From Ostreococcus lucimarinus (Eukaryota), in the NCBI GenBank assembly GCA_000092065.1, contig CP000586.1: a stretch of DNA of 64,000 nucleotides; one strand, written 5' to 3'. The notes under the pieces are model-generated. The model made no database searches. It was not told the origin of the DNA and saw only the letters and a program-made list of their open reading frames with translations. The translations under genes were made by a program, and so were the position numbers. This document shows, one piece after another, positions 1,933 through 32,741 of the stretch (positions are counted from its first letter, which is position 1; every line of letters starts with the position of its first letter).

Positions 1933-2025
1933 GTGAGTATCCGAATTAATTCCGATATGAATAATTTCGTTCGAATTTCGCGTTAAAAGTTCATATACTA
2001 ATTTACTGACTCTATACGTGCATAG

Positions 2026-2103
2026 GACTCGAGCGAACTGCGAAATAGATGTGGATTGATTATTTTGAACGGTCTCGTCGGTTCTTCACACGACGTATCC
2101 CGG
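2026..2103 (+). CDS. LRR-ARM-patatin protein, exon 3 of 7
   Basis: Acceptor tgcatag| is followed by 26 codons (DSSELRNRCGLIILNGLVGSSHDVSR) and donor CGG|gtaagcgt. The intron carries a ttactgac branch-point-like motif. Confidence 0.6.
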
Positions 2104-2160
2104 GTAAGCGTGTTTCACATCGGTTGACGCAAGAATCTAACTGATCCTTTCGTAACGCAG

Positions 2161-2208
2161 GCATGTTATTCCGACAAATTAATCGGACGCTTGACAGAGT
2201 TCGTGGCG
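2161..2208 (+). CDS. LRR-ARM-patatin protein, exon 4 of 7
   Basis: Acceptor taacgcag| is followed by 16 codons (ACYSDKLIGRLTEFVA) and donor GCG|gtgcgtac. Without splicing, the read-through hits TGA. Confidence 0.55.
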
Positions 2209-2270
2209 GTGCGTACTTGCGTAAATAATTGCATCGTGAAAGTCTGAATTAATTAAATAATTTCCCTCAG

Positions 2271-2591
2271 GCGATTGATGAGCATATGCGGCTATTAGCG
2301 CTGAGAACTTTGGGTACTTTCGCTTTCGACGAAACTAATAAACGTGCGATGCTCAAACTGCGCGATCTCCACTCGATTCTCGTCGTATTCGCGCTCCGCC
2401 CGGAATTAAAGGCGGCGAGCGTTGCGGTGAAGAAGGAATCGATCCGAGTATTGGCTATTTTGGGCGAGAACGAGCTCGTGCGCCAGGCCACTGGTGCGCC
2501 TCCCATCACTGGTCGTGGTATACGCATTCTTGCGCTAGATGGTGGTGGTATACGCGGTAGAGCGACGTTGAAGATGTTGAAAAGAATTGAG
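2271..2591 (+). CDS. LRR-ARM-patatin protein, exon 5 of 7 (ARM repeat plus start of patatin domain with Gly-rich oxyanion motif DGGGIRG)
   Basis: Acceptor ttccctcag| precedes the ARM-like text LLALRTLGTFAFDETNKRAMLKL..IRVLAILGENELVRQ. This is followed by GRGIRILALDGGGIRGRATLKMLKRIE, the patatin GGGxRG motif. Donor is GAG|gtgaggaa. Confidence 0.7.
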
Positions 2592-2658
2592 GTGAGGAAT
2601 TATTTCATTTATTTATTTAGAGCTTGAATTCACGAATTTTTTGTTTCGTCGCGATCAG

Positions 2659-2727
2659 GAAGGAACTGGTCGTCCGATTCACGAATCATTCGATTTGGTG
2701 TGCGGAACGTCTACTGGTGGCATATTG
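2659..2727 (+). CDS. LRR-ARM-patatin protein, exon 6 of 7 (patatin nucleophile elbow GTSTG)
   Basis: Acceptor gcgatcag| precedes EGTGRPIHESFDLVCGTSTGGIL, which contains the GxSxG serine-hydrolase motif of patatin/PNPLA enzymes. Donor is TTG|gtacgaaa. Confidence 0.7.
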
Positions 2728-2813
2728 GTACGAAAACGCCCGTCTAGAGCGCACGAATTAATTATTTCGCCGTGAACAATTATTTTTTACTAACCAACAC
2801 ATTTTGCTCGTAG

Positions 2814-4583
2814 GCCACGGCGACGTCCATCAAAAAGCTCTCATTGGAGCACTGCGATAAGATTTATGTAAATCTTGGCAGCAAAATCTTCAGTCAAACA
2901 ACGCACAACGAAGAGACCTCTGGATCGAACTCTTGGCTCGGCAGTGTTGGTTCCATGTACACGAGTGGAAAGCAACAACTTCTCGCGACGACGCTCTATA
3001 GCAGCAAGCACAACACCTCGACCTTTGAAACCCTCGTTAGACAAGAGTGCAACCCTGAAGCAGAAGAGCCAACGTGGATAGACACCGCTGCGTCGGGCGG
3101 TCCGAAAGTTTTCTGCGTTTCTACCCAAACGAGTCAAAATCCGGCGCAGCCGTACTTGTTCAGAAATTACACGTATCCGGCTGGCAGTACGAGTGCGTAT
3201 TCCCAGGCAGGTAGTTGCGAATATCTATTGTGGCAGGGTGTCTGTGCATCCGCCGCTGCACCATACTACTTGTATGTTGACGCCTTTGCGATAGAAAACG
3301 AGCGCTGGGTTGATGGAGCCATGACTTGCAACAATCCGGCGATGATGGGTGTCCAGGAAGCTCGACGACTTTGGCCAGACAAGAAAATTGACTGTGTCGT
3401 GTCCCTCGGAAGTGGTAACTTCATCCCCCACGAGAGAGATCCACCCATTTCTCTCGTCGCTTTGGCCAAAGATGTCTTGTTTGACAGCGCTTGCGACACT
3501 GAACGCGTTCATGAAAGCTTGAGTACGCTTTTGCCACTCATACCCGGGGCGCAATATTTCAGGTTCAACCCGGTTGACGAGCGTTGCAAGATAGAAGTCG
3601 ATGAAACGGATGTTGGTGCACTCCAAGGCTTATTTGACGCTACTGAAGAGTACATTGTGGCAGAGAAGGAGATGTTCGACAAGGTATGCCATTTATTGAG
3701 AGACGTCGACGACACAGATGAGGTCACCGCCAAACTTCTCGACACGGAAATTAGCGGAACGCGCAGTGGTGTTCTAGTTTTGGAAGCGCCCCGTTACGAA
3801 GAGGAACTTTCTGAATGTACTTCTGCCTTGAAGAATTTTTGTGCTTTAAGATCGATATCGATACAGTGCGCAGATTACTCCGCCAATAGACCCATGAATC
3901 CGGGCGAAGCACTGAGCCATCTGAACACGGTGGCGGAGACGTCGACTGCAGCAGTGATTCATTTCAACTGCCACGCCGATTCTGACGGATTGATTCTCAC
4001 TTGGCAGAAAGATGTCACTGCTATTGCTGAGCCTAGCTCGGTCGCTGAACTATTTCTCAGTAGGTCTGGTAGCCCGTATGCGTCAGTCAGCGAACACTGT
4101 GAAGCTGAGGCCCACATTGAGGTGCATGGAATATTGCATACTTTCTCAGGCAAGCACGTGCAAGTGAACGATGTCGGCGAGCGCACGTCGTCATACTTGT
4201 TTAAGCGTACTGTCCCAATGGACTACCTGGACGGATCGACGAGTCGAGAGTTATTTGGTTTATGGCGTGGGAAGATCATCGTTTCTCAAAGTTCACTTCC
4301 ATCCTCACTCGTTGCGGCGTGGCTTGAAGCCGGGGCGAAATGTGTGGTCGCACCGTGCAAGGAAGGCGGCGTCGTTAACGTTGAAAGCGAACAGACAGAC
4401 TTTATGGCTGCATTCTATCACGCACTTTTTGTTGTGGGCGCGGATGCTACTGCGGCGATGAGCGCAGCTGCCATCGTGCAGCCGGCGTGCTCGTATTACC
4501 GTTGTCACGTTCTTGTTCAAGGTGGAATCGTGGCACTTCGTCCTGACGAAGAGTTTGACTATGATTTGGATGCGCACGTATAG
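2814..4583 (+). CDS. LRR-ARM-patatin protein, exon 7 of 7 (rest of patatin domain with catalytic Asp motif DGA, plus roughly 400-aa C-terminal region of unknown function)
   Basis: Acceptor ttgctcgtag| is followed by a long ORF containing ..LWQGVCASAAAPYYLYVDAFAIENERWVDGAMTCNNPAMMG.. (patatin DGA/G catalytic dyad Asp). The stop TAG is at 4581-4583. Confidence 0.75.
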   Translation, partial: ATATSIKKLSLEHCDKIYVNLGSKIFSQTTHNEETSGSNSWLGSVGSMYTSGKQQLLATTLYSSKHNTSTFETLVRQECNPEAEEPTWIDTAASGGPKVFCVSTQTSQNPAQPYLFRNYTYPAGSTSAYSQAGSCEYLLWQGVCASAAAPYYLYVDAFAIENERWVDGAMTCNNPAMMGVQEARRLWPDKKIDCVVSLGSGNFIPHERDPPISLVALAKDVLFDSACDTERVHESLSTLLPLIPGAQYFRFNPVDERCKIEVDETDVGALQGLFDATEEYIVAEKEMFDKVCHLLRDVDDTDEVTAKLLDTEISGTRSGVLVLEAPRYEEELSECTSALKNFCALRSISIQCADYSANRPMNPGEALSHLNTVAETSTAAVIHFNCHADSDGLILTWQKDVTAIAEPSSVAELFLSRSGSPYASVSEHCEAEAHIEVHGILHTFSGKHVQVNDVGERTSSYLFKRTVPMDYLDGSTSRELFGLWRGKIIVSQSSLPSSLVAAWLEAGAKCVVAPCKEGGVVNVESEQTDFMAAFYHALFVVGADATAAMSAAAIVQPACSYYRCHVLVQGGIVALRPDEEFDYDLDAHV

Positions 4584-4616
4584 AAATACTAGACAATAGT
4601 TTTAAAAACTTATAGA

Positions 4617-7331
4617 CTATTCTACTTCGATGTCCCCCAAACTTTCAGCGTACTTTTTCAACTCCTTCTCATTGATGACTTCGACGGACTCGACCCAACC
4701 AACGTACTGAAGAATACTGTAAGTCAACACCTTACCGGCATCTTGGATGATCGCCCAGATGATGACGTAAAGCCAACAATATCCGGACAGCTGCCAGGAA
4801 ATTCCTACCATGCCGTTTCCGAAAGGCCAGTACACCGCTAAAAGAGTCGACGCTCCAGTGGCGATGATGAAGGCGCCGACCAAGATGACACTTGGAGCGC
4901 GCGACCAGAACCAGCCCTTGGTTCTCGAGTTAAATACTGAGAAGTAATCAGAAAGACTGATTTTCAAGTAAATAAGCGTCTGGATCTCTCCGTATGACAT
5001 CGCTGGGAGACCAAGTTGAGACCAAGTGCTCGTTGGATCAACCGATGATAACGCTGAGCTCAGCAGAAGTACGGATGATGCCAAGGCTGTCAAGCCTATA
5101 GCGGAAGATACGATGTACAGGATATTCAAATCCCATTTTTCTGGTTGCATGGAAGCGTGCACGTTATCGTACGCCACAGAAATAATGGTTCCATCGTTCA
5201 ATATCGTAATCGTAACAAGTGCGATGACCGGAATAGCAAAGTGCTGCGGCCAAGACTCATTGAACTGACTAGGATGATAGAATATACACGAGATGAAGAA
5301 AAAGAACAACAACTGCTCTGTACACGCCACCCGATAAATCACAAAGTTTTTCATTCTTTGGAAGATTTTGCGGCTCGTGACAATCGCCGTAACGATGGTG
5401 GACAGACCGGGTTCGGTGAGAACAATATCAGCCGCAGCTTGCGCCGCGCTCGTAGCACCTTGTACAGCAATTCCGACATCCGCCCGCTTTAACGCAGGCG
5501 CATCATTCACACCGTCTCCAGTCATGCCGACGAGCATCCCTTGCTGTCGCAAAGCTTCTACAATCAGATATTTGTGCTCTGGGAATACTTGTGCGAATCC
5601 GTCCGCCTTTCGACACAGTTCACCATAATCTCGTCCTAGCGTGGTCGCCTTCTCTAGTTCCTCCGCTTTCATGAGAGGAAGTTTTTCAGTGCCAAGCACG
5701 TTTGTGCCCATACCCAACGTTCTGCAAGTTTCAACCGCAATGGCGCGGTGATCACCGGTGATCATTTTCACACTGACACCAAATTCGTTGGCGCAGTCAA
5801 TGGTATGCTTTGTGTCCGGGCGAGGAGGATCCAAAAAGGTCAAAATACCCAAAAATTCGAACTCGTTGCTATTGTTCTTTGTTTTCGCCACCGCGAGCGA
5901 ACGAATACCGCGATGAGCTAACTCGAGAACGTGCTTCTCGACCTCTTGACCGATCGTGGACTTGTTTGCACTCAACTCTAAAACCACGTGCGGGGCACCT
6001 TTCGTCACCTTGAACACGTTACCGTTCTTCTCCTTGATCGTGCTTTCTGTGCGCTTGATGGCTGGATCAAACGGAGTGTGATCGGTCTGTTCGTAATCGT
6101 TCAATGCGCTGATGTTAACAGCGTTTAATACCAAAGTATCGAGGGCGTCCTTTGGCGGCTCCCACCATTTCGCCGCCAACGCCGCGAGTTTGAGGACTTC
6201 TTCACGCGAAACACCCGGAACAAAGATTGGTAAATCCTTCTGAAGAACCATCTTGTTCAGAGTGAGCGTTCCTGTCTTGTCTGAGCACAAGATTGTCATA
6301 CCCGCCAACTCTTCAACAGAAGAAAGCCGCGCTACGATGGCCTTCTCCGCCGCAAGTTCATGACAACCTAAAGCCAACGTCGTCGTACAAACCACTCGCA
6401 AAGCGATAGGAATAGATGCAACAAGAAGGACTACGTTGAACGCTAAGACCTCCCAGAAATCAACCCCGATAGAAAGTAAATAAATGAACACCAGAGTACA
6501 GATGAAGAAACCGACAGCGACCAAGATGTATGTAATCTCTCTGAGTACTTTTTCAAAGTGCCCGAGCTCATCGACTCCTTGAACTAAGTCCGCGGTTTTC
6601 CCAAAGAACGTCTGGCTACCCGTCGCTGTGACGGTAGCTTCGATTTCTCCGCGCGTCACGGTGGAACCCATTTTTGCTTCCGCACCTGGAAACATTGCGA
6701 CCGGCAACGATTCCCCCGTGAGCGCGGATTGATCCACTTGAATAGGTTTTCCATCTCTAATCGTGCAATCCGCCGGGATCGCACCCCCCGCGCCGAGGAC
6801 GACGATGTCCCCGGGTACTAACTTTGTGGCGTTGATGATGTACACGCGTCCTTCGCGTTTCACCGTCGCCTCCGGTTTCAGCGACTCTCTCAACGCCGCG
6901 ATGGCGTCACCGGCCTTCATTTCCTCTATAAACCCCACGAGCACGTTCAACAATTGCAGCACCACCAACACGATGACGTCCACGAGACCATCCATGGACT
7001 GATGAATGTACGTCTCGATGGATTCGATGAGGATGGCTGCCCAGATCATCATCGGCATCGGTTGTACGAACTCCAACGCGAGTTTCAACCACATGCTATC
7101 CTCCTTCACCTTGAGCTGATTAGGTCCGAATAACTCCAACCTACGCGCCGCCTCGTCCTCGTTCAAACCGCTCTCGCCGGTGTTGAGCAAACTCTCGCGC
7201 TCGACGCCCATGTAGAAGCGCGCGTCGTCCGTCGTCTCCGTCCCATACGCCGCGCTGTCCTCCTTTCCTCGCCCGAGAAGCGGTGTCGAGCGAAGATCAG
7301 CGTCTTCATCTTCGCCTCCGCCGCGCGACAT
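4617..7331 (-). CDS. Plasma-membrane-type P-type H+-ATPase (P3A ATPase)
   Basis: The ORF carries the phosphorylation motif CSDKTGTLTLNKM and the hinge motif GDGVNDAPALKRADVGIAV. The N-terminal ..EDEAARRLELFGPNQLKVKEDSMW matches PMA/AHA proton pumps, and about 10 TM segments are present. The ORF track opens at a TTG at 7433; the first ATG (MSRGGGEDED) is at 7331. Confidence 0.9.
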   Translation of the reverse strand: MSRGGGEDEDADLRSTPLLGRGKEDSAAYGTETTDDARFYMGVERESLLNTGESGLNEDEAARRLELFGPNQLKVKEDSMWLKLALEFVQPMPMMIWAAILIESIETYIHQSMDGLVDVIVLVVLQLLNVLVGFIEEMKAGDAIAALRESLKPEATVKREGRVYIINATKLVPGDIVVLGAGGAIPADCTIRDGKPIQVDQSALTGESLPVAMFPGAEAKMGSTVTRGEIEATVTATGSQTFFGKTADLVQGVDELGHFEKVLREITYILVAVGFFICTLVFIYLLSIGVDFWEVLAFNVVLLVASIPIALRVVCTTTLALGCHELAAEKAIVARLSSVEELAGMTILCSDKTGTLTLNKMVLQKDLPIFVPGVSREEVLKLAALAAKWWEPPKDALDTLVLNAVNISALNDYEQTDHTPFDPAIKRTESTIKEKNGNVFKVTKGAPHVVLELSANKSTIGQEVEKHVLELAHRGIRSLAVAKTKNNSNEFEFLGILTFLDPPRPDTKHTIDCANEFGVSVKMITGDHRAIAVETCRTLGMGTNVLGTEKLPLMKAEELEKATTLGRDYGELCRKADGFAQVFPEHKYLIVEALRQQGMLVGMTGDGVNDAPALKRADVGIAVQGATSAAQAAADIVLTEPGLSTIVTAIVTSRKIFQRMKNFVIYRVACTEQLLFFFFISCIFYHPSQFNESWPQHFAIPVIALVTITILNDGTIISVAYDNVHASMQPEKWDLNILYIVSSAIGLTALASSVLLLSSALSSVDPTSTWSQLGLPAMSYGEIQTLIYLKISLSDYFSVFNSRTKGWFWSRAPSVILVGAFIIATGASTLLAVYWPFGNGMVGISWQLSGYCWLYVIIWAIIQDAGKVLTYSILQYVGWVESVEVINEKELKKYAESLGDIEVE

Positions 7332-7570
7332 CGTCGCGTCGTCGCCGATCGACGCGCGACGCCCTCGCCTTCGGCGCCCTAGAATGGGGTGTTGGCGCTC
7401 GCGTCGGGCGTCGTCGATGTTAGCTTTATTCAACTTTATTAGTCATCGCAACGCGTCGAATACGCGTTTATCGATTTATCGCGCGCGGCGACGGTGCGTC
7501 TTTCAACACTAAAGGCGAGCGAGCGGCGCGCGGCGAGCCGCAGACGCGCGCGCGCGACGTCGAGCGCGGC

Positions 7571-12522: not shown

Positions 12523-14004
12523 CTAAACGAGAAGAGGAGAGTCTAAGACGGCGTACCCCGCCGCGACGCCGCCTTCGTCGGAAGTCGCCGCCTTCGTCCG
12601 GAGCAAACTCCCACCGTGTTTATTGATCACGATCTCGTCGCCTACGCGGAGATAACTACCGTAAATACCTAACTCGGACAGTGTTTCGATTTCGAGCACC
12701 TTACCGGCGCGAACGGTGAGCGTTTGATGAGATGGAGGGAGAATGCGTTGCATGAGAATGAACGCGCCCAAGTCTCCGCCGAGTTCAAGTCGTTTGCGCA
12801 AATCGTCCGAATACAAATTATTTCCACCACCCTCACGCTGAGGCTTTAAGACGTAGCCCGCTGGATTCGCGAGTGCGAGTTTAATCGCCTCGGTGCCTTC
12901 GTCGCCGTCTAAGGAATACAAATCTGCAAAGACACGTCGCATGTCCGCGGCGCGTTCCGGCATGAACGATTCGAGCACGCCCGCTTCTGCGAGCTTTTGT
13001 TGCACCTTCTTCGATCCCGCCAAGTGCATTGCCACCGAAGGGCTCTTCAAAGCGTTCGATTGTTCGATTAACAACCGTGCTGACCATTCGCCACTGGTCG
13101 GATAGTCCGACGGGGTGTATCCGGCTCGAAAGTACACCAAGCCGATGTCGTCGCCTCGAAACGTGAGCGTTCCGTCGCGCAACGCGCCCTCGGCGTTTAC
13201 TTCGGCTAAAGTCGCTCTGACGGTGTGAATTCCGTGCGTTTCGAATATATAATGCGAGATGTGCCGCTGATCGAACATATTACGCTCGTTCGGCTGAACC
13301 ACCATCATGATTTTCCCTTTACTCCCCATCGCTTTCCATCCCGCCGCGAGGACGTCGCCCGCGCTCGAGAGCGCGTCGTTCTGTGGCATCGCGTCGAAAT
13401 CCACCACTTCTCCAGGTTTCGCCGACCACGCCGCTAAGTGTCTATGCATCGCGCTCACCTTCGATCCGAGCGCCATGAACGACGTGCTCACCGTGTTCAC
13501 CTCGACTTGCAAAGGCAACCCGCTCGGCGCGTCGAGCATGTAATCGCTTCGCAACACGCCAACCTCCGCCTTCTGTCTCCCCTCTTGCCCGCCGCTCCGT
13601 TCGTACACGTCCCACAGCGCGGCCGTGAATGCATCGTTCTTAATCGCCCCCCGCAGCGTTTCCCTCAGGAATCCATCGTCCCTCGACACTCCGTCGTACA
13701 GCTCCGCGAACGCCGGCGACGTCGCCTCGGCGAGCTCGTACGCGCTCCTCGGAAACGTCGTCGGCGCGCACGACACCGGCGCGTGCGTGAACGTCCCCGC
13801 TTCGTCTCCTCCGATCATCAATCCGTGTTCGACGCAGTACGCCACCGCTTCCACCGCGCGCGCGCTCGTCGCGCCCTCGCGCACGAGCCCGCGGTTTCCC
13901 GCCCCGGTCGTCGTCGCCGTCGCTCGCGTCGTCGTCGTCCCGCGTCGTCGTCCCATCGTCGCGCGCGTCGTCGCTCGCGTCGTCGTCGCGCGCGTCGTCG
14001 CCAT
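12523..14004 (-). CDS. GSS: Eukaryotic-type glutathione synthetase
   Basis: Diagnostic segments are ..VLKPQREGGGNNLYSDDLRKRL.. and the N-terminal substrate-binding region AVAYCVEHGLMIGG..FTHAPVSCAPTTFPRSAYE. The length is about 490 aa. Confidence 0.85.
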   Translation of the reverse strand: MATTRATTTRATTRATMGRRRGTTTTRATATTTGAGNRGLVREGATSARAVEAVAYCVEHGLMIGGDEAGTFTHAPVSCAPTTFPRSAYELAEATSPAFAELYDGVSRDDGFLRETLRGAIKNDAFTAALWDVYERSGGQEGRQKAEVGVLRSDYMLDAPSGLPLQVEVNTVSTSFMALGSKVSAMHRHLAAWSAKPGEVVDFDAMPQNDALSSAGDVLAAGWKAMGSKGKIMMVVQPNERNMFDQRHISHYIFETHGIHTVRATLAEVNAEGALRDGTLTFRGDDIGLVYFRAGYTPSDYPTSGEWSARLLIEQSNALKSPSVAMHLAGSKKVQQKLAEAGVLESFMPERAADMRRVFADLYSLDGDEGTEAIKLALANPAGYVLKPQREGGGNNLYSDDLRKRLELGGDLGAFILMQRILPPSHQTLTVRAGKVLEIETLSELGIYGSYLRVGDEIVINKHGGSLLRTKAATSDEGGVAAGYAVLDSPLLV

Positions 14005-14137
14005 CCGCGTCCACCGCGCGCGCCGTCGCGCGTCGACGTGCGTCGCCGGGAGTCTTCGACGCGGTCGAGGACGCCGAACGCGAAAACACGCGCGCGGAGA
14101 CTCGCCGGTTCGGAAAAATTGGATCCGTTATAGTGCT

Positions 14138-14245: not shown

Positions 14246-15871
14246 ATGAGCCTGGACGACGTCCCGATCAACGGCGATCGAACGAGGACGTGGGAGGAGA
14301 TCATCGCGAGCGCGCTGGAGGGGGACGGCGGGACGACGACGACGACGACGACGACGCGCGACGACGACGATGCGGATTGTTTAAAGTCAACGCCGACGAG
14401 GAGTTACTTGAAAAAGGGGACGCGAGCGATGCGGACGTCGCCGTTGACGCCGAAAACGGCGGGAACGACGCCGAATGTGACGAACGCGCGATCGAAGGTG
14501 GGGCGCGCGCGAGGGATGAGCCCGAGGGGGGGGGGGGAAAGAGGAACGGGGACGACGACGGCGGAACGACGAAGAGGAACGACGACGACGACGAGTCCGA
14601 GTCCGAAAATCGCGTTCGGGAGGCGCGAAGAGTCGCGCTCACCGCGACGAGCAGGTGGTGGGTTGTTTGACCACGACGTGAACGTTCAACCGTCGACGAT
14701 GGAGGCGTGGAGAGAACATAAAGCGAGGAGCGCGAGGGAGACGAAGGAATTCGAGGCGCTCGAGTCGCGGTTGTGGAGCGAGACGAAGGCAAAGGAAGAG
14801 GCCGAGAGGCGATCGTTCGATGACGTGAGATCGGGTACGGTCGTTCGTGACTTTGTCTCTTCGTCGACTGCGGAGGAAGAGGAAGCGCGCGCTGCCTTTG
14901 AGCGCGCCAAGGCGAGTCTGGCGAGCGAAAGACAACGATTCGCCGACGAACGGGCGGCGTGGGAAGCGAAAAGAGACGACGCCGAGGAAGCGTTCAAGGC
15001 TGAGTGTGAGGACGTGCGCAGACAGTTCAAGCGCGAAAAGGCGGCGTTGATGCGCGAGGCGGAGGCACACTTAGCACTACCCACGAAACAGGAGCGCAAT
15101 GAAGCCAAGTTTCTTCGCGAACAGCTCGAGCGCAACGAGGCTGAATTCAAAGCCGAGCAACAACGAGCCAAGCTCACGGTGGATCGCCTGCGGCAACAAA
15201 TCGTCGATCTGACGAACGAAATTTCGGAACTTCGCATGGAGAAAAGGTTGCTGGAAGAGAAGTGCGAGGTATCGAATCGTTTGCAAGCGAAGGCTTTGTC
15301 GACGACGCCGCCTCGTCGAGTCGAGCCGGTCGTCGAGATCGCTTCGCCCGCGAGTTCGCGGCCTGGGATGACGATTTCGTCGGAACCGAGTCCATCTAGG
15401 CGTGTATATGCGGATGATACGACGTACTTTGCACCTCGTGCGCTCAGTGTGCGCGATCCGCTCCCGAGCGTGAGCGATAAAGTTCGATTACGAAGCACCG
15501 CGGGTCTCGAACGCGAGATTCCGCACGAGGATGGTCGGGTCGAGCGCGTCTTTGCTGACGGTCGTCGCGTCGTATTTTTCGCAAACGGCACGATTAAGGA
15601 AATCGATGGTCATGAAACGACTATTTTCTTCACCAACGGTGATATCAAACGCACTCACCAAAACGGTATCATCGAGTATTACTACTTCGACGTCGAGACG
15701 TGGCACACCACGCACCCAACCGGCGTTGAGCTCTACCATTTCGTTCAAACCAATCAAGTCGAACTTCACGCCGCGGGCGACGAGCCCAAGGATAAGGAAA
15801 TCTTATTTCCAGACGGAACCCTTCGTCGCGTTTACTCGAACGGCTTCGAGGAAGACGTGGCCGGATTGTAA
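14246..15871 (+). CDS. CPAP/SAS-4 (CENPJ)-like centriolar protein: coiled coil plus C-terminal TCP10_C/G-box domain
   Basis: The C-terminus FADGRRVVFFANGTIKEIDGHETTIFFTNGDIKRTHQNGIIEYYYFDVETWHTTHPTGVELYHFVQTNQVELHAAGDEPKDKEILFPDGTLRRVYSNGFEE matches G-box repeats of CPAP. A long coiled coil lies upstream. Confidence 0.8.
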   Translation: MSLDDVPINGDRTRTWEEIIASALEGDGGTTTTTTTTRDDDDADCLKSTPTRSYLKKGTRAMRTSPLTPKTAGTTPNVTNARSKVGRARGMSPRGGGERGTGTTTAERRRGTTTTTSPSPKIAFGRREESRSPRRAGGGLFDHDVNVQPSTMEAWREHKARSARETKEFEALESRLWSETKAKEEAERRSFDDVRSGTVVRDFVSSSTAEEEEARAAFERAKASLASERQRFADERAAWEAKRDDAEEAFKAECEDVRRQFKREKAALMREAEAHLALPTKQERNEAKFLREQLERNEAEFKAEQQRAKLTVDRLRQQIVDLTNEISELRMEKRLLEEKCEVSNRLQAKALSTTPPRRVEPVVEIASPASSRPGMTISSEPSPSRRVYADDTTYFAPRALSVRDPLPSVSDKVRLRSTAGLEREIPHEDGRVERVFADGRRVVFFANGTIKEIDGHETTIFFTNGDIKRTHQNGIIEYYYFDVETWHTTHPTGVELYHFVQTNQVELHAAGDEPKDKEILFPDGTLRRVYSNGFEEDVAGL

Positions 15872-16006: not shown

Positions 16007-16456
16007 ATGACGTCTTTAGATTTACGCACCGCCACGCTCGAGCAGCTCAAAGTCGCCGACGAACAGCTCCGCGAGGAAGTCACGTCGTACTCGGAATCTT
16101 TGCAGATGTTGAGCAAAGCGGTGAGTCGATACCACTCCTCGGGATCGGCGATCGAAGAGCTGTCGAAAGAAACTGTGGGTAAGGACATGCTCGTCCCACT
16201 CACGGAGTCGTTGTACGTGCCGGGTAAGATTGCGGCGGTCGATAAAGTCTTGCTCGACGTCGGCACGGGGTACTTCATCGAGCACGACACCGAGAAAGGG
16301 ATCGATTACTGTAAGCGCAAGGTGAACTTTATTCGAGATAACATGGAAAAGTTGATGGAGCTCGTGGGTAAGAAACGCAAGCAATTGTTGCTGGTGCAGG
16401 ACTTTCTGCGAGCGCGCACGCAAGAGGCGGCGCAGGCGCAGGCAGGGGCGAAATAG
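16007..16456 (+). CDS. PFD5: Prefoldin subunit 5 (alpha-type prefoldin)
   Basis: 149 aa. Coiled coil, beta hairpin (LVPLTESLYVPGKI), coiled coil, and the N-terminus ..LEQLKVADEQLREEV.. fit alpha-class prefoldin. Confidence 0.8.
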   Translation: MTSLDLRTATLEQLKVADEQLREEVTSYSESLQMLSKAVSRYHSSGSAIEELSKETVGKDMLVPLTESLYVPGKIAAVDKVLLDVGTGYFIEHDTEKGIDYCKRKVNFIRDNMEKLMELVGKKRKQLLLVQDFLRARTQEAAQAQAGAK

Positions 16457-16498: not shown

Positions 16499-17515
16499 TC
16501 ATTCATCCTCCTCAACCTCGACTGTGTTCTGGAGTATTTCCGGAGGTGGACCATCGAGAGACATGGTAAAATGCGCTAGAAACTCCGTGTTGCCCTCTTT
16601 CGCGCCTTTAATCGGCGAAGTGGTGTGATCGATGTACTCGAATCCGTACAGTTTGGCGCCTTGAATGACGTTTTCAATCACCTCCTTGTGAACGTTTGCG
16701 TCTCGAACCACGCCTTTGGAGCCGATTTGACTTCGCTTGGCCTCAAATTGAGGCTTGATCAGCACTAACATCGTCCCCCCTGGCTTTAATATTCTACAAA
16801 TCGCTGGTAACACCTTTAGGACGGAGATGAATGACAGATCCAACGTCACGACGTCGACGATGTCTGGAAGGTCCGTGACGTATCGTAAATTTGTGCGCTC
16901 CATGATGATGACTCTCTCGTCTTGCCTAATCTTCTCAGCCACTTGACCGTACCCCACATCAACCCCGTACACCTTCTTCGCTCCGCTCTGGAGTAAACAA
17001 TCGGTGAAACCGCCCGTGCTAAGCCCAGAGTCGAGCGCCGTACATCCCGAGACGTCCACGCCAAAGTGCGCGAGCGCCTTTTCCAACTTCAATCCCGCTC
17101 GACACACAAACTTCGGCTGCTCCGCGATGACTTCAATCTTCACGCTCGGCTTGAGTTTCGTTCCAGCCTTCGTCACGGGCTGTCCATCGACCAATACCTT
17201 CCCCTGCGCGATCCAACTCTGCGCCACGTTGCGCGACAACTCGGGATTACGCGCGACGGTGAGTTCATCCAACCTTTGTTTCGCCCCCGTCACCGGCGCC
17301 GCGACGCGTCCGCTCGTCTCCGCTCGCGCGTTCTCGCTTCTCTCGTCCCCACTCGCGCTCGCGCTCCATCGTCGCGCGCGTTCGCGTCGTCCCGCGCCCG
17401 CCGCGCGCGTCCCGCTCGCCGCCTCGCCTTGGCACCGCCGCCACCGTTCTCTCGCGCACGCGCGCGTCACCGCCCCTCGCGCGCGCGTCGCCGCGCGCGC
17501 GAGCATCGCGCGCAT
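16499..17515 (-). CDS. TlyA-family rRNA 2'-O-methyltransferase (S4 RNA-binding plus FtsJ-like domain), organelle-targeted
   Basis: S4 domain (RLDELTVARNPELSRNVAQSWIAQGKVLVDGQPVTKAG) and FtsJ fold (CTALDSGLSTGGFTDCLLQSGAKKVYGVDVGYGQ..DLSFISV..) are present, with an Arg/Ala-rich presequence from the ATG at 17515. The longer six-frame ORF to 18310 overlaps the opposite-strand gene and is rejected. Confidence 0.75.
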   Translation of the reverse strand: MRAMLARAATRARGAVTRACARERWRRCQGEAASGTRAAGAGRRERARRWSASASGDERSENARAETSGRVAAPVTGAKQRLDELTVARNPELSRNVAQSWIAQGKVLVDGQPVTKAGTKLKPSVKIEVIAEQPKFVCRAGLKLEKALAHFGVDVSGCTALDSGLSTGGFTDCLLQSGAKKVYGVDVGYGQVAEKIRQDERVIIMERTNLRYVTDLPDIVDVVTLDLSFISVLKVLPAICRILKPGGTMLVLIKPQFEAKRSQIGSKGVVRDANVHKEVIENVIQGAKLYGFEYIDHTTSPIKGAKEGNTEFLAHFTMSLDGPPPEILQNTVEVEEDE

Positions 17516-17692
17516 CTCGCGCGTCGCCTCGCGCGTCGGCGCCCCTCTCGCGGTCCCCGCGTCCCGCCGTTTCGCCGTCTCGGCGTCGCGGTGTCCCGGT
17601 CCAACGACCGCGACCGACCAAACCCTCGCGGCGACGGCGGCGACGGCGCACTCGCGGACGCGCGACGACGACGTCGACGCGCGCGGCGAACG

Positions 17693-18643
17693 ATGACGAT
17701 GCCGATGACGACGCTCGCGAGCGCGTCGCGATCGCGACCCGGAACGACGACGACGACGACGACGACGACGGCGCGCGGTGGACGAATGCGCGCCTCGAGC
17801 CGCCACTCGAGTCGTCGAGGCGACCGCGTCGTCGGACGCGTCGCCGAGGGTGGGAAGAGCGAACGCGGACGCATGAAAGATGAAGAAGAGTACGCGAAAT
17901 TCGTCGAAGAGGCGCGAACGTGGACGGCGTACGATCCGGAAGCCGTGGGTGGGGAGAACGCGACGCCGCCGTGGGAAAAGGAATTGCAAGACGCCATGCG
18001 CGAGGGACCGTGGCCGTGCTGGGACGCGGACATTCCCGAGAGTGATTTCGTGGATGAACCTCGATTCATGTCGTTCACGAAACCTCCGGAGAAGTACGAC
18101 CCGTTCAAGGAGAAGATCGTGAATTACAAGGCCAAGGTGAAGGAGGAACAAAAGAGGGCGGTGGCGAAGACGCGGGAGGAGGTGAAGTCGCAGCGCTTCA
18201 TGTCCATGGCGGGTGACATACGGTTGAAGAATAAGTACGAAGACGACGAATCGGCGTGGGATCACGAGAAAATCGTGGAACTGATTAATTTTCCCGATGA
18301 CATCAGACACAAGATGATGAGCGTGAGCGTGGAGGTGTACGACCCTCGGTTTCCGTACGACTTCACGGGGATGGGCGCGCCTCCTTTGACGACGGAGGAG
18401 TTTTTAGAATCCATCGGTCGCTTGCAACCGGATGGTGAGTCCGATCTCGACCGCGTCGCGAAGTTGGCGGAAAAATACGGCTCAAAGGTACCGGAACTCG
18501 CCGAGGAAGATCCCGCTGCCATCTTGCAGACGCGCTCGACGTTTGAATTACAGAACGCGATGGACATCGGGGATGAAGGCGGCGTCGAAATCAGTAAAAC
18601 GGAGATTTCAGACCTCGTGGACAGCGATGACGAACTTCCTTAG
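17693..18643 (+). CDS. Conserved-looking hypothetical protein (Thr/Arg-rich presequence, acidic C-terminus)
   Basis: A clean ORF follows the ATG at 17693. The mature part EEEYAKFVEEARTWTAYDPEAV..WPCWDADIPESDFVDEPRFMSFTKPPEKYDPFKEKIVNYKAKV.. has non-repetitive, protein-like composition. No family recognised. Confidence 0.4.
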   Translation: MTMPMTTLASASRSRPGTTTTTTTTTARGGRMRASSRHSSRRGDRVVGRVAEGGKSERGRMKDEEEYAKFVEEARTWTAYDPEAVGGENATPPWEKELQDAMREGPWPCWDADIPESDFVDEPRFMSFTKPPEKYDPFKEKIVNYKAKVKEEQKRAVAKTREEVKSQRFMSMAGDIRLKNKYEDDESAWDHEKIVELINFPDDIRHKMMSVSVEVYDPRFPYDFTGMGAPPLTTEEFLESIGRLQPDGESDLDRVAKLAEKYGSKVPELAEEDPAAILQTRSTFELQNAMDIGDEGGVEISKTEISDLVDSDDELP

Positions 18644-20262: not shown

Positions 20263-20550
20263 GCGCGCGCGGTTCGCCGCGGGACGACGCGGCGACGCGT
20301 CGGAATAGCACACGTAGTTTGTCACACGAGTTACTTAGTCACGCGTTCGGCGCGGTTTTCCGCGCGTTTTCCGCCGTCTCGTCCCTCGCGCGTTCGCGCC
20401 GGTTCGAACCGGCGCGCGCGCGCGCGTTTCGCGCGCGCGTCGAGGGTTTAGGCTGTGCCGCGTCGATGGTTTCGGATGGGTCGGCGTCACACGCGCGCCG
20501 TTCGCGCGCGCGGTCGTCGCTCGATCGCGCGGTCGCGCGGTCGCGCTGAG

Positions 20551-23500
20551 ATGGAGCTTTTGCTCGAGTTCGACGACGACGCGCACTACCTCGACGACGA
20601 CGCCCGCGCGCGACGCCGCTCGACGTCGTCGTCCGCGGTCGTTGGGCGCTGGGCGCGGGACGACGACGACGACGACGACGACGAGACGTACGTCGCGGCG
20701 ACGCTGCGCCGAGCGGTGCGGCGATGCGCGCCCGGAAACGATGGAAGCGATGACGACGCGAACGATGCGTTCGAGGCGCTGACGCGATTCGTGAGCGATG
20801 GGGACGAGGACGCGCTCGCGCTGACGGTCATCAAGTTGTTGGAACTCGTGGGCGGGGACGCGGCGGTGATGATGGCGCGAGGAGACGATGAAGACGACGA
20901 TGGGAACGAAAATGTGGGAGAAAATGATGAACACGGACACGGGATGGACGTGGCGATCGCGAGATGCGACGCGGGGTACGTGAAATTGGGCGTGGAACTG
21001 GCGAGGACGATGCCGGAGACCAAGTACGGGCCGAGTCATCGAGGAGCGTTGTTGCGAGGCGTGCGGCACGTGTTGCGGTCGTACATGGGGAATTGTCACG
21101 CGGTGTGCGAACAAGGCGTGGTACAGGAGCTGCTGCGCTCGCTCGACGCGCTTTTGAGATCGAATGAAAACGGCAAAGCCGACGGTGATGTGAAAATCGT
21201 CGCCGAGTGCGCTCGACGCGCGGCGGGATTTTCCATGTCGGCGCTGGATTTGAAAGTGTGGCTAGAGTTAGCCGCGGCGAGCACGCCCGAATCTAGAGGG
21301 TTCCTGCTAGATCAACTCAACATGACGCTGCAGACGAGGTTTAGCACCGGTCCAGCGGAATTGTTCCTGTTGGATGGGGAAAGTAGCGGGATATTAGGCT
21401 CGGCGCAACCCAAGTGGCCGTTTACGGAAGGTTTGGCTTTTGTGACTTGGGTGTACTTGGAAAGCGTTTCTGCGTCAGAGACTACCGCTGCGTCAGCAGC
21501 ATCGTACGCTGCTGCCGCTTCAGCATCGCAGGTCGTGGATGCATCTCCACTCGCCGCCGCTGCAGTTGCCGCCGCCGCCGCGGGCGAAGACGAAGTGCAC
21601 ATGCCGCGGCTGTTTAGTTTTTTATCCGCCGAAGGACAAGGGGTTGAATGTTACTTTCACGATGGTTTCTTGATTTTAGAGACAAATGGTGTTAAAGAAT
21701 CCAGAATGACGCTCCCGTTCTCTCACAAATTCCCTCTCAAGCGATGGTTTTGCTTGGGAATTGAGCATAAACCAGCGAGCGTTCGAACCGGCGGAGCCGA
21801 AACCCGGCTGTACGTGAATGGTATATGTGTCGAAACCCACAAGTTTGATCTACCGAAAATAAGCAAGCCACTTGGGTTCTGTTGTATAGGTACAAATCCT
21901 CCAGCAGCTATGGCCGGGCTACAACGTAAGCGGCGTCAATGCGCACTGTTTGCAAGTCTCGGACCAGTGTACATTTTCAAACAGGCGCTTGGCGGTCATG
22001 CGATGAAGGCACTTTCAGCGCGTGGTGGATCTTATGTTCCGCGATTTTCATCGAACGATGACAAAGGAGGCGATGTCAACGTCGAAGATGTCTTAGATAA
22101 GGTATTAGCACCGACTATACTTCAGGTTCTCCATCCTCGAATGGCGAGCAAGAACTACGTCTTGGATATTTCTCCTGCAGGAGTGTCCATCGAGTCCAAA
22201 GCGGCCCTGTTGGGCGGCACAACTGTAGCGAGGCGCAACTTGATGCGAGACTCTATTTGGGCATCGTGTGAAAGTGGACCAGCCATCATGCTACCGTTCG
22301 CGTGTCCGTTGGTTAGCTCAAGGAATTTAGCACCGGAGATTTCAGATGCTCATGACGATTTCGCCAGTGCGGGTTTATCCATACGTTCAGTTATCGGAAT
22401 AATAGCCGGTGCGTGCGAAAACCATCCTCCAAACTTGAAAGTCATGGAAGACAAAAACGTCCCAAGTCTCTTGGCGCACGCTTTACCGTTCGCTATGGAT
22501 GCTCTACGTCGACAGTTTTCTGGCGACATTCTCGACGACGAGGAGGAAGCCATTCTTGACGCCATTGAGCATCTCTTATCCGTGTGTAAGAGCGAGAAAG
22601 TGTTATCAAAGCAGCTTCTTTCTACGCTTGTGTTGGACTTCAAACCTTGGAACGGCTCCGGAGCACGCGTAGTTCGGCGTCGCTTGAACATATGTTCTTC
22701 GCTCTGTAACACGAGCCCAGATTTGATGCAAGAAATTTCAGCGCTGCAACTTCTGTTTGATAATGGACGTCGTTGGCTTTCACCAGCGACGTCTCTAATG
22801 GGAGGAATACTGCATAGTAGTTCTACGAAGTCAGTTATGGATGATAGAGGAGAATTACGGGTATCAGAGAAGGAGTTGCTGGGATTGATAGACGACTTGT
22901 TGGTGTCCGTGAATTTACTCGTCAACACCAGTGAACACATGGACGCAAAAGTTGAAATCATAATCGGCTTTCTTGCAGAGTGCCCGTGCCCTCACATGCT
23001 CTCAGCTACCATAAAGCTAGTCCATTCAATGATTGTCTCACCTAAGGCTGATAGAGCGAACGAATTTTTATTTGCCTTTGTGTCCAAAGGAGGTGTCGAG
23101 GTCTGCATGGGTCTCATGCGCGCACTTGCTCTCCGAGGAAAATTTGATCATCAACTTCAGGGTGTGCAGGGCTTGTTTGCCGAATGTGTGAGATTATTTG
23201 GCTATATGTTAGAAACCGGGTGCGTGAGCGCAAATAAAACGACCGAAGTAGGCGGTAGCAAGAAGGTCACCAAGGGAAGCATAGAAAGAGCTGTTCGGTA
23301 TGCTTTCATCAAAGGCTCAGCTGAACTGCTAACAGTTGACGTGTACGAGGCGATCATTCAGTCCTCTATCTCAATCAATCTCGCAAGCATAAACATGACT
23401 GAGCCGGCTCGGCTCATCAGCGGTGGTATGCTTGGATCTATGCTCTCAACTCTACCGAAGTGCGAAGAGAGTGTGTCTAGTCGAGCGCTGAACGACGTCA

Positions 23501-26500
23501 TGTTGATTGCGTGCGCATACGCAGACAATCGCAACTTATTACTTTCTTTGCCCGAATTCCCAGAGTGGTTAGTGGAGATACTCGTGCAGTCCACAATCTC
23601 TAGCGCGTTGAGTGCTGCAAACGACCTGCTAATGATCCTGTTGCAACATTCAATGCGATTGCCGGATGGTTGGCGCGTTCTTGAGACAGTGATTGAATCG
23701 ATCAAGATGGTCACCAAAGATGATGTAAAAAAGCGAGCCGAAGTCCAGCAGCTAGTATTGCAAAGCTTGGCGACGTTTATGATCAGTGAGTTGAAAGGCA
23801 TAAGCGTTTCAGATGATAATCGAACAAAGAAGTCGAGAGAAAACCTGAGCGCAAACAGCAACGCAACGTTTGAAAACATCATCGCTTTGTTAGACATGAT
23901 TGAAGATCATTTGAGGTTACTTAGCGCTGAGTCACTATCGCCAATTCATTCATACGATATTGGTAAGATCTCGAACGCCCTAGTCTGCTACGGGGCATAC
24001 GCTACGGACTCAGCAAATGGATGGGTCAACCGTTGTCGCTTGATTGAAGGTCTCGTCGCGACGCCAAGCGCAGGTTCAACAGCAATGGGCGGTCAATCTC
24101 TCGAACTGCTACGTCTCACGCAGCAAATGATAAATTTTATGGTCGGTATGCAATGCACTGGTGCAGATTCATACTCACTGTTGCTGAAGGATGATGAGTT
24201 GGTCCTCTTATTTCTCAGACTCACTCTCGCGTATTTTCGCGAAGAAGATCTTCCAATAGATGACGATTCGTATGATAGCGCCCTACCGCTGATGCCGGCA
24301 CATATCGTGAATACACTGCCGTCGCTAACCTCCGGTAGTTCTTCGATTTCCGATGCGATTGTATTTGAGGCAAAGCATCTGTGGGGCACGACACAGTCGA
24401 GCGAGGCTGGTAAGAAGTTGGCAGTGTTGCACAACCTGCTTGTACCTCTGTTGCAAGCGGCATCGGTGCGTAAAACGGCTCGTCTCGCACCAGGAGCCAT
24501 AGCGCTTCTGTTAGACGAAGTTTGGCGGTACTCAAAACTCAAGGGACGAAAAGTGGTGTATATCAAGGCGATCACCACTTACTTGATCGCCTTGGTTGCT
24601 CGCTGGCGGGAAGTCATCGTTGCGGGCGAGAAGGATGATATCTCTCCAAAGCTGCGTTCGCTTGCATCAGGATCGTTGAGCTCAGCAATAATATCTCTAT
24701 GTTCAGCTGAGTGGACCAAGATACTCATGTCGTCAACAATCAAGGAAACGCTCATATGTGTAGTCAAATCAACGCCTATGGGTGAAACGCGAAACAGCGT
24801 CGTAGCCGCCCGAGGCCCAGATGCGACAGAGTCGAGACTGAGTGCGCAGAGAGCTGTTCATCACACAAGGACAGATACTTTCAAAAAGTTTGTGACGACT
24901 TGGGAAGGTGAATACGTGCACATCTCTATGTCGTCGAAATGGCTCGCAGCGCTCTCAAAGGAAGCTTCTAGACGTACTCTATCCATCGCCGCCGAAGGCG
25001 AAAAGAAAAGCGAAGTTATCGTCGCTTGGGAAGGTTACATGAGAGCCTTGCAAGCGAGTAATTCTCTGGTGACGAAAATTAAGGATGATGGCGATGTCGC
25101 ACGTTTAGGAATCGACCCATCAGAGAGCGGTAGACGACGTCGTTACTCTCTTTCTCGCATGGCGATGCGACAGCGTTTAACGCATTTGGCACCAGTCGAC
25201 TCAAAGGCGATGGAAATTAAGCTCCCTGTCCGACAACAGCATGACGCATCGGACGACGAAGATGACCTTCCTCTGAGTCCACAGCGATCGATGAACAACG
25301 AAGAGTTAAACGAGGTGATGGCTGCCACTGCCGCACTGGCAGTCGCGGCAAATCGTAGCGAAGTAAAGAAGTCCAATTATGAGTGTTCTGCGACAATGGT
25401 CACTCCTCTGGACATCTACAGTGGCAAATTCACAATCTCTGACAAGGAAATGATATTTTACACCGAAGACAACTCGCACGTCTGGTCTTGGCCCCTGGAG
25501 CATCTTCATCAAGTTCAAAGTCGAAGATATTTGCTTCGTCGAAGCGCTCTGGAATTTTTCATGCTAGACCGCATGACTTACTTTATTGATTTCGGTACTG
25601 CTGAACAAAGGCGGCAAGTTTTCCGCGTGTTGATCAAGCTGAAGCCCAAAAATTTCGTTCCACTCTATCTTGAGACCAGTAAGCCGGAAGCTTTGCTCCG
25701 CAAAAGTGATATCACGTCACGGTGGATTCGTCGTGAAATTTCAAATTTTGACTATATCATGGCGCTGAATACACTTGCCGGAAGAAGTTACCAAGACATA
25801 ACGCAGTATCCAGTGTTCCCGTGGGTTCTCACGGATTACACCTCGGAAACTCTAGATTTGAGCAATCCAGACGTGTATCGTGATTTGCGGAAGCCTATCG
25901 GAGCGCTGAACCCAGATCGACTTGCGAGAATCAAGGAGCGCTACGACTTTTTTGACGACCCTGAAATCCCGAAGTTTCATTACGGGAGTCATTATAGCTC
26001 ATCTGGAACGGTCTTATTCTATCTCTTGCGTGTCGATCCATTCACGACGCTCGCATATGAGCTGCAAGGTGGTAAATTTGATCATGCAGATAGACTTTTC
26101 CACGACATTGCTTCGACGTGGAAGAGTTGCTACAATGACATGAGTGACGTCAAAGAGCTTGTACCTGAATTCTTCTACCTTCCAGAAATGTTCAAAAATG
26201 TCAACAATATTGACTTCGGAGTCACTCAATCTGGTGAGAAAGTCGACGCCGTCATACTTCCTCCGTGGGCAAAATCACCGGAAGACTTCGTCGCAAAGCA
26301 GCGCGAGGCTCTTGAGAGTGACTACGTCAGTAAGAACCTTCACCACTGGGTCGATCTCATTTTTGGCTACAAGCAAAGAGGCAAAGCTGCAGAGTCTGCG
26401 TGTAATGTTTTCTACTATATGACCTATGAAGGTGCAGTTGACGTCGAAGCTATTCAAGATCCAATCCTGCTGAAGGCAACGCAGGATCAAATTGCTTGCT

Positions 26501-27846: not shown

Positions 27847-27911
27847 GATTTTTAGCACAAAAATAGCATTCATGGTAATGAAACAGTTATTAGCACTTAG
27901 TTTTACAATTT

Positions 27912-32125: not shown

Positions 32126-32445
32126 TTAGTGCGCAACGAAAGCCTTACCCGCCTTGGAGCCGCTCGGGATCACCTTCAACGTGTTGAAACGAACGGTCTT
32201 GGACAACGGGCGGCACTGGCCAACGACAACCTTGTCGCCTTCGTTGCATCGGAAGCACGGGGAAATGTGCGCGGAGATGTTGGTGTGGCGCTTCTCGTAA
32301 CGCTGGTACTTGCGAATGAAGTGCAAGTAATCCATGCGCATCACGATCGTGCGGTTCATCTTCGTGGACTTGACGACGCCCGTCAAGATGCGACCGCGAA
32401 TGGACACGTTACCCGTGAACGGGCACTTCTTATCGATGTACGTCC
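32126..32445 (-). CDS. RPS11: 40S ribosomal protein S11 (uS17), exon 3 of 3
   Basis: [91 protein letters not shown] is near-identical to eukaryotic S11. The acceptor is ctcgatcgtag|. Confidence 0.9.
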
Positions 32446-32640
32446 CTACGATCGAGGTAAAAATCAATCAGTCGTCAGTCTCACAGTCTCCTCGCTTTTC
32501 TCATCAACCCTCTTCGCCGTCATCGCGTCGTCATCCGCCCGCGCGTCCCGACCCTCGCCTCGCCGCGCCCTAGAACCCCAAGCAAGCCCTAGAACCCGCG
32601 CCATCGCGCGTTCGAAATCCCTCTCCTCGTCTTCACGCAC

Positions 32641-32741
32641 CTTCGATCGCCTCGCGCGGCGTCTTAAACCCGAGACCAACATTCTTATAGTATCGGTTAC
32701 CACCCTTGCCCGGCGTCTTCTTCTTCGTCGCGGACGCAAAC
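32641..32741 (-). CDS. RPS11: 40S ribosomal protein S11, exon 2 of 3
   Basis: Encodes ..[30 protein letters not shown](G), flanked by acceptor gtgcgtag| and donor |gtgcgtgaag. The phases join exon 1 (phase 2) and exon 3 (phase 1), giving a 158-aa product. Confidence 0.75.

Follow-up and report, generated by a model that had tools for sequence, protein, structure and literature searches.

We analyzed a 64,000-nucleotide stretch of contig CP000586.1 of Ostreococcus lucimarinus (assembly GCA_000092065.1), hereafter called the window, and focused on a gene at positions 14246..15871 of its plus strand that encodes an orthologue of CPAP/SAS-4 (CENPJ). In our listing of open reading frames (ORFs), the gene is an intact, ATG-initiated frame of 541 amino acids (aa) plus a stop codon, and an in-frame stop lies upstream at a distance of 11 codons. 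That the frame is a complete coding sequence (CDS) is further indicated by its identity, from residue 152 onward, to the public protein XP_001418190.1 and by collinear orthologues. The assignment of the gene as a CPAP/SAS-4 orthologue is, in our judgment, practically certain. It consists of a single exon and encodes a compact yet domain-complete protein.

The O. lucimarinus CPAP gene is already known, as it is annotated in public records. XP_001418190.1, from O. lucimarinus CCE9901, carries the name "centromere protein J", belongs to the protein cluster closest to the window protein, and is identical to residues 152-541 of that protein at 390/390 positions. Since identity begins at residue 152, we assigned the internal Met152 (14699..14701, plus strand) as the start codon of the public 390-aa model. 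An exact-sequence look-up with the 541-aa protein gave no match because the public model starts at this residue. Every orthologue conserves the N-terminal 151 aa, and in O. tauri the model has 539 aa. The O. tauri protein XP_022839188.1, a member of a more distant cluster, bears the public name "T-complex protein 10 family" and has prefoldin subunit 5 as its neighbor, as in the window. The true start of O. lucimarinus CPAP is most likely position 14246, and XP_001418190.1 appears to be N-terminally truncated by 151 aa, with the result that probable tubulin-binding motifs were missed. What is new here is this truncation of the public model, the invariant STIL-binding edge, and the housekeeping-level constraint described below, all of which are modest additions.

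The C-terminal G-box and its predicted fold

An initial annotation of this DNA had assigned the C-terminal ∼120 aa to the CPAP/SAS-4 G-box and had proposed a hidden Markov model (HMM) search with PF07202 as a check. Our searches bear out the assignment. PF07202 (Tcp10_C) matched the window protein with E=2.3e-17 and 62.8 bits, against a Pfam gathering cutoff of 36. When all PDB chains were searched with phmmer, query residues 423-538 matched the zebrafish CPAP G-box (4bxp/4bxr, 4ld1) with E=1.7e-22 (4bxp) to 1.1e-21 and the homologous G-box of Drosophila Sas-4 (4mpz, 4by2) with E∼5e-12 to 1e-11. This match exceeds chance by far. For instance, the stretch IEYYYFDVETWHTTHPTGVELYHFVQTNQVELH, comprising residues 476-508 (window 15671-15769), aligns with its zebrafish equivalent. 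A homologue search using the G-box only gave 10 short fragments and did not widen the set of named taxa.

Pfam, the PDB search, an AlphaFold2 model, Foldseek, and the ratio of nonsynonymous to synonymous substitution rates (dN/dS) together support the assignment of a G-box/TCP10_C domain at aa 421-538 (15506..15859, plus strand). Our AlphaFold2 model, for which a 21-sequence family alignment served as input, places 13 consecutive beta-strands at residues 421-538 in a single-layer beta-meander, with predicted local distance difference test (pLDDT) scores >90. The predicted fold would thus be an elongated, solvent-exposed, single-layer antiparallel beta-sheet. In a Foldseek comparison with the PDB, the best 11 matches were CPAP/SAS-4 G-box entries throughout; 4lzf superposed on the model with 1.4 Å root-mean-square deviation (rmsd) over 102 columns at 40% identity, and 4ld1 with 1.6 Å over 103 columns. 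The Drosophila Sas-4 G-box (4MPZ, 4BY2) diverges more than that of zebrafish and gave rmsd values of 10-13 Å over longer alignments.

The zebrafish G-box has 17 strands and ∼157 ordered residues and is able to form ∼8 nm head-to-tail fibrils (PMC3824074). In contrast, the window G-box has only 13 strands over ∼118 residues and ends at about zebrafish residue 1050, so that the last ∼55-60 residues of the full-length zebrafish-type domain are absent. We considered whether an unseen downstream exon accounts for the short domain and rejected this, as only 135 bp separate the stop codon from the prefoldin ATG and all orthologues, including that of Micromonas, end alike. The G-box of the flagellate Micromonas (XP_002501847.1) stops at the same point as the window G-box. 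Because a flagellate has the same truncation, the short G-box is a lineage variant and does not disqualify the protein as CPAP. If the head-to-tail fibrils of the G-box, with their ∼8 nm period, serve as a "molecular ruler" of the centriole (Hatzopoulos 2013), then Micromonas, which builds basal bodies, manages with a G-box sheet about 1/4 to 1/3 shorter.

The STIL-contact edge

The G-box binds the PRxxPxP motif of STIL/Ana2 (PMC3776556, PMC3824074). The initial annotation had attributed to this domain the binding of both STIL/Ana2 and tubulin; the first attribution agrees with the published work, but tubulin binding maps to the N-terminal PN2-3 region (PMC3776556, PMC4884677). In zebrafish CPAP, the residues that contact STIL are F978, Y994, Y996, H1003, T1005, F1015, Q1019, and E1021, and Drosophila Sas-4 recognizes the proline motif in the same mode as zebrafish CPAP (PMC3776556). 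To place these contacts, we numbered the zebrafish chain from its YYY motif and mapped the published list onto aa 462-506 of the window protein (15629..15763, plus strand). All eight contacts are identical in the window protein, where they correspond to F462, Y478, Y480, H487, T489, F499, Q504, and E506, the last of which is equivalent to human E1235, a microcephaly site.

The same eight positions are invariant in 11/11 Mamiellophyceae orthologues, while T986, taken as a non-contact control, varies among them (T/A/R/V). Over the 112 columns that align with zebrafish, the G-box is 42% identical. Columns that are both invariant in Mamiellophyceae and identical in zebrafish number 28/112 and include 8/8 contacts (hypergeometric P=6.5e-6). 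In total, 45 G-box columns are invariant, with the partner-contact residues all among them.

Probable tubulin-binding motifs at the N terminus

Human PN2-3 contacts tubulin through a P326-I327 stretch, a helix carrying F338, E339, and Y341, and the SAC residues F375, L376, K377, R378, and F385 (bioRxiv 10.1101/2021.10.19.464980; PMC4884677). At the N terminus of the window protein, we found a probable counterpart of the PN2-3 "N-terminal stretch" and LID helix at aa 3-25 (14252..14320, plus strand), with the sequence LDDVPINGDRTRTWEEIIASALE. This placement draws on BLASTP, PF25779, profile searches, and a helix at residues 16-25 of the AlphaFold2 model. P7-I8 align with human P326-I327, and W16-E17-I19 with human F338-E339-Y341. 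A SAC-like, putatively tubulin-binding motif follows at aa 50-66 (14393..14443, plus strand), with the sequence PTRSYLKKGTRAMRTSP, as judged by alignments, invariant residues, and dN/dS. Here Y54-L55-K56-K57-G58 align with human F375-L376-K377-R378-G379, and L55, G58, and R60 are invariant in 8/8 Mamiellophyceae sequences. The poly-Thr linker between the two motifs (window 14333-14356, aa 30-37) is D/G-rich or longer in the related contigs L001 and L003-L007. It is of low complexity, contains indels, and evolves fast, at near-neutral dN/dS values of ∼0.4-1.4, while the flanking motifs are conserved.

Support for PN2-3 homology came from several searches. In BLASTP, aa 1-58 matched the PF25779 region of P0025, a 914-aa protein of canonical CPAP architecture (PF25779 plus six PF07202 repeats), with E=2e-5 and collinear with a second, C-terminal match to the same protein. 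A profile built from Mamiellophyceae sequences only ranked the human CENPJ PN2-3 chains 1-4 among 177,635 PDB sequences, in register and with E=0.02-0.06. An HMM built from Ostreococcus sequences only found aa 112-183 of Micromonas CPAP (E=6e-4) as well as P0025 (E=0.013). We also built an N-terminal profile that contained P0025, which matched the human PN2-3 chains at E∼1e-6; we discounted this result as evidence since P0025 itself carries the signal. Although formally below threshold, PN2-3 homology is in our view probable.

Basic region, coiled coil, and linker

Between the N-terminal motifs and the G-box lie three further segments. Residues 60-148 (14423..14689, plus strand) form a basic, disordered region rich in S/T/P/G/R, with a net charge of +12, a pI of 12, and pLDDT <50. 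Human CPAP has a positively charged MBD (PMC4884677), and by its position and charge this region is a candidate equivalent of the MBD/A5N. An alpha-helical coiled coil follows at aa 149-351 (14690..15298, plus strand), with helices at 149-190, 209-277, and 281-351 modeled at pLDDT 84-97. Its last helix bears the conserved segment ALPTK-ER...RLRQQIVDL that is common to canonical CPAP, and the BLASTP high-scoring segment pair (HSP) with P0025 that covers window residues 272-538 (E=1e-23) starts inside this helix. Invariant columns are numerous in the interval 270-345, and dN/dS for the coiled coil is 0.13. By analogy with its homologues, the protein may dimerize via this coiled coil. Lastly, a disordered linker at aa 352-420 (15299..15505, plus strand), with pLDDT <50 for residues 354-395, ends in a conserved "DP.PSVSDK" motif; its conserved columns are S401, D404, P405, P407, and V409.

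Comparison with known CPAP proteins

The window protein shares with vertebrate CPAP/CENPJ (4BXP, 4BXR, 4LD1) not only the STIL contacts, the level of G-box identity, and the predicted fold (1.4-1.6 Å) but also the order of modules, in which a probable PN2-3-like region and a basic region come first and the coiled coil is joined by a linker to the G-box at the C terminus. Vertebrate CPAP is ∼1,100-1,340 aa long, whereas the window protein has 541 aa and carries its PN2-3-like motifs at the extreme N terminus. In composition it resembles human "CPAPmini" (LID, SAC, MBD, and dimerizing coil) with the addition of a short G-box.

A further comparison is with Micromonas commoda XP_002501847.1 (P0105), from a sister genus that bears a flagellum and a basal body. 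Its G-box is likewise short and ends at the same position, with 53% identity (E=5e-44), and it has the same STIL contacts. Its N terminus has in common with the window protein the motifs D-x-P-[IV], F/W-E-x-L-L, and FL[KR]KG-R. In contrast to the window protein, the Micromonas orthologues are 885-941 aa long (885 for XP_002501847.1), with an N terminus longer by ∼110 residues, a lengthy insert that is acidic and of low complexity, and a more extended coiled coil rich in E/R/K.

Conservation, synteny, and selection

Full-length collinear orthologues of 538-597 aa are present in at least six further Ostreococcus-type contigs with identical gene order. These are 43-92% identical to the window protein by BLASTP, and their loci have 54-60% G+C. 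The shared order runs from a nucleotide-sugar transferase through Alb3/60KD_IMP, MlaD, Yae1, and glutathione synthase to CPAP, and continues after CPAP with prefoldin, an FtsJ/S4 methyltransferase, an unknown gene, SBDS, LSM, and BEACH. The prefoldin gene (subunit 5, 16007-16456, plus strand), a tubulin/actin-folding co-chaperone, lies 135 bp 3′ of CPAP on the same strand, and the adjacency is kept in all Ostreococcus-type contigs examined (L001-L007) and in O. tauri. Although both products are tubulin-related, their proximity probably reflects conserved gene order and is coincidental.

We estimated dN/dS by the Nei-Gojobori method for three independent close orthologue pairs. The CPAP G-box gave values of 0.021, 0.098, and 0.090, and the whole gene 0.19-0.31; among the neighbors, prefoldin gave 0.025, SBDS 0.079, and glutathione synthase 0.09-0.33. 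The N-terminal motif codons gave 0.05 and 0.11 in two pairs and 0.86 in the closest pair, where 43 codons with 4 changes are too few to be informative, while the low-complexity linker between the motifs ranged over 0.4-1.4. Because G-box dN/dS lies at 0.02-0.10 within the genus, we consider the gene to be maintained rather than decaying, and we are highly confident that it is functional. A Tajima relative-rate comparison of Ostreococcus with Micromonas, using zebrafish as the outgroup, gave ∼2x unique changes in the Ostreococcus G-box (p=0.04-0.3). This excess was absent with two other outgroups; as an outgroup-dependent result, it does not indicate a robust relaxation of constraint after flagellar loss.

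Genomic context

We scanned ∼32 further ORFs of the window against Pfam. All have the appearance of routine housekeeping or trafficking genes, and no other centriole or cilium gene was found among them. Neighbors include a P-type ATPase, a patatin-like lipase, BEACH and Kelch proteins, a cysteine protease, an ABC transporter, Utp11, a Castor/Pollux channel, and RF-1, as well as RIO2, an ATG1 kinase, an M50 protease, ribulose-phosphate epimerase, GidA, an anthranilate-phosphoribosyltransferase-like protein, RBM22, and Vps54. The long ORFs at 17702-18640 (+), 32129-33469 (+), 39905-42040 (−), 49403-50338 (+), and 53447-54436 (−) had no family match in Pfam at E≤0.001. The first of these has a syntenic counterpart, likewise without a Pfam family, in all Ostreococcus lineages examined (e.g., L001 9638-10408).

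Three parts of the window (2000-6000, 22000-28000, and 34000-36000) are low in G+C (0.48-0.51 vs 0.57-0.68 elsewhere) and coincide with long genes. These are the patatin-like gene at 2844-4583, with a G+C content at third codon positions (GC3) of 0.53, the P-type ATPase at 4617-7433 (−), the 2463-aa BEACH gene at 20455-27846 (GC3 0.53), and the ABC-2 transporter at 33643-35958 (−). Short metabolic genes are very rich in GC3, as in the ribulose-phosphate epimerase at 50457-51254 (0.84) and the gene at 57613-59043 (0.85). The GC3 differences look like gene-by-gene heterogeneity in codon usage. Many long ORFs are antisense to genes or overlap them, such as those at 13438-14133 (+) and 17066-18643 (+), and R, S, and A abound in their translations. 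A 301-aa antisense ORF of the same composition lies inside the CPAP CDS at 14686-15591 (−). We take such overlapping and antisense ORFs to be artefacts of a genome of ∼60% G+C rather than genes.

Discussion

No centriole or basal body, microtubule-organizing center (MTOC), or axoneme is known in Ostreococcus (PMC3144413, PMC1939878, PMC2239267). In whole-cell cryo-tomograms of O. tauri across the division cycle, there are one or two microtubules, whose ends are blunt and open, and no MTOC is apparent (PMC1939878). O. lucimarinus is without cytoplasmic dyneins 1 and 2, outer-arm dyneins, and single-headed inner-arm dyneins, while it keeps inner-arm dynein I1, represented by IAD-1alpha, IAD-1beta, and IC138 (PMC2239267). 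SAS-6 has been reported in O. tauri (PMC3697468), and the ancestral ciliary genes of two Ostreococcus species number 30 and 34, which groups these algae between species with and without cilia (PMC5850483). When we queried with the Chlamydomonas SAS-6 head domain (100% to PDB 6zzd/3q0y), none of 93 candidates was recognizably from Ostreococcus; this search was limited by its word index and is not evidence of absence. That Ostreococcus has centriole genes is a known paradox, under discussion in print since about 2007-2011. Like CPAP, the SAS-6, IAD-1alpha, IAD-1beta, and IC138 genes of Ostreococcus are canonical-looking genes for an absent organelle and presumably have a second function (PMC2239267, PMC3697468, PMC3144413). 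O. lucimarinus CPAP is thus a documented exception to the profile by which the SAS-6/SAS-4/CEP135 module occurs only in centriole-bearing organisms.

This setting overturns two conclusions of the initial annotation. It had read the gene as implying centrioles or basal bodies and a flagellate stage, and none is visible in the host, O. lucimarinus; it had also taken the gene to argue against Ostreococcus, while the O. lucimarinus protein XP_001418190.1 matches residues 152-541 with 100% identity. The grounds on which it proposed to abandon its reading were the lack of a PF07202 hit and the absence of every other core centriole gene. Neither situation was encountered, as PF07202 matched and O. 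tauri is reported to have SAS-6 (PMC3697468). Such grounds were insufficient because, in Ostreococcus, having the gene and having the organelle are uncoupled. We infer instead that the gene is retained for a function that survived the loss of the flagellum and that it says nothing on flagellation.

As the host is without a flagellum, visible centriole, or MTOC, we propose an acentriolar microtubule role for the protein. The steps of this proposal are modeled on work on homologous human, zebrafish, and fly domains, while the cellular role is taken from the cell biology of the host. The protein would dimerize through its long coiled coil, and the PN2-3-like motifs (the P-I stretch, the short helix, and the YLKKG SAC) would grip exposed beta-tubulin at the microtubule plus end while the basic, disordered segment next to them holds on to the microtubule lattice. 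Such capping and lattice holding could stabilize microtubules and give slow, processive, catastrophe-resistant growth, as described for human "CPAPmini" (PMC4884677). On the exposed sheet of the G-box, the edge formed by the conserved aromatics and E506 may dock a proline-rich partner, which in animals is STIL/Ana2. In the acentriolar setting of Ostreococcus, this activity might serve the single or few cytoplasmic microtubules, the tiny spindle, or both. Chances for an acentriolar cellular role are about even or somewhat better, and the full statement, that CPAP activity is kept and used on the few microtubules of acentriolar Ostreococcus, is the one we lean toward with slightly more belief than doubt.

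Several observations weigh against this proposal. In the N-terminal region, PF25779 is the sole Pfam match to aa 1-85, and its score (E=0.014, 16.1 bits) falls below the gathering cutoff of 22; the Micromonas N-terminal fragment reached 20.7 bits. The profile built from Ostreococcus sequences only retrieved no CPAP PN2-3 chain from the PDB, only chance PDZ matches. The human SAC contact F385 is replaced by T64, and the residue is threonine throughout Mamiellophyceae, including Micromonas. The MBD assignment follows charge and position rather than sequence homology. With 13 rather than 17 strands, self-association of the G-box could not follow the zebrafish proposal of an ∼8 nm period. Preservation of the "STIL-contact" aromatics might serve the stability of the single-layer sheet and not a partner; because the same residues may stabilize the sheet, their invariance is no proof of a partner. 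Finally, the retention of SAS-6 and of 30-34 ciliary genes would be explained no less naturally by a cryptic centriole-like structure.

Adapted to the true host, the reading of the initial annotation would be that such a structure puts CPAP to its canonical use, in the form of a highly reduced SAS-6/CPAP centriole- or basal-body-like remnant, too small or short-lived to have been noticed, or of a normal one in an unobserved sexual or gametic stage. The co-retention of SAS-6 (PMC3697468) and the invariance of the STIL-binding edge are exactly what this explanation predicts, and it would equally account for the preservation of all CPAP modules, the strong purifying selection on the gene, the I1 heavy chains and IC138 kept in O. 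lucimarinus (PMC2239267), and the ancestral ciliary genes of the two species (PMC5850483). Against it, cryo-tomograms across the division cycle contain no MTOC (PMC1939878), and intraflagellar transport (IFT) and axonemal dyneins are missing, so that a conventional motile, IFT-built flagellum seems impossible (PMC2239267). That the window holds no other centriole or cilium gene is a weak argument in the same direction. We regard this explanation as rather unlikely, albeit the strongest competitor. Its more specific form, in which intact CPAP is the signature of a minimal SAS-6/CPAP vestigial centriole, an MTOC seed, or a basal body of an undiscovered sexual stage, we hold to be a little less probable again.

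The two other explanations that we weighed fare much worse. If the gene were a functionless relic being lost after flagellar loss, its 541 aa, as compared to 885-941 aa in the Micromonas orthologue, and the doubled count of unique G-box changes against Micromonas with the zebrafish outgroup would be readily understood. However, the rate excess is gone with two other outgroups, the short G-box is common to flagellate Micromonas, the ORF is intact in all lineages examined with conserved gene order, G-box dN/dS is as low as that of housekeeping neighbors, and the 45 invariant G-box columns include all partner contacts. The selection data effectively refute a pseudogene or relic, which we deem highly improbable. 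Alternatively, the protein could be no CPAP orthologue but an unrelated coiled-coil protein with a TCP10_C/G-box, like mammalian TCP10/TCP10L, since PF07202 alone cannot separate CPAP from TCP10-type proteins and the PN2-3 match is below the Pfam threshold. But TCP10 proteins are a mammalian offshoot, and TCP10/TCP10L members have a G-box without the CPAP-type N terminus and coiled coil, whereas the window protein has a CPAP-type coiled coil and a probable PN2-3. Canonical CPAP homology extends upstream through the coiled coil in the HSP over 272-538, a second collinear HSP falls in the tubulin-binding region of P0025, the N terminus touches no Pfam family other than PF25779, and human CENPJ PN2-3 chains are the four best PDB matches of the Mamiellophyceae profile. 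Of all the explanations, this one has the smallest chance of being correct.

Whichever use Ostreococcus makes of CPAP, a core centriole gene is no proof of a centriole or flagellum, and in this case it was misleading as to the organism. Should the fibrils of the G-box serve animals as a "molecular ruler" of 8 nm, then green picoalgae would either have another period or need no ruler. Our findings sharpen the old puzzle of SAS-6, CPAP, and inner-arm dynein I1 in Ostreococcus by adding intact binding surfaces, housekeeping-level selection, and a natural "CPAPmini plus G-box". The puzzle is tractable, given that O. tauri is gene-targetable and accessible to whole-cell cryo-electron tomography, and localization of the protein would tell a repurposed microtubule regulator from a vestigial centriole.

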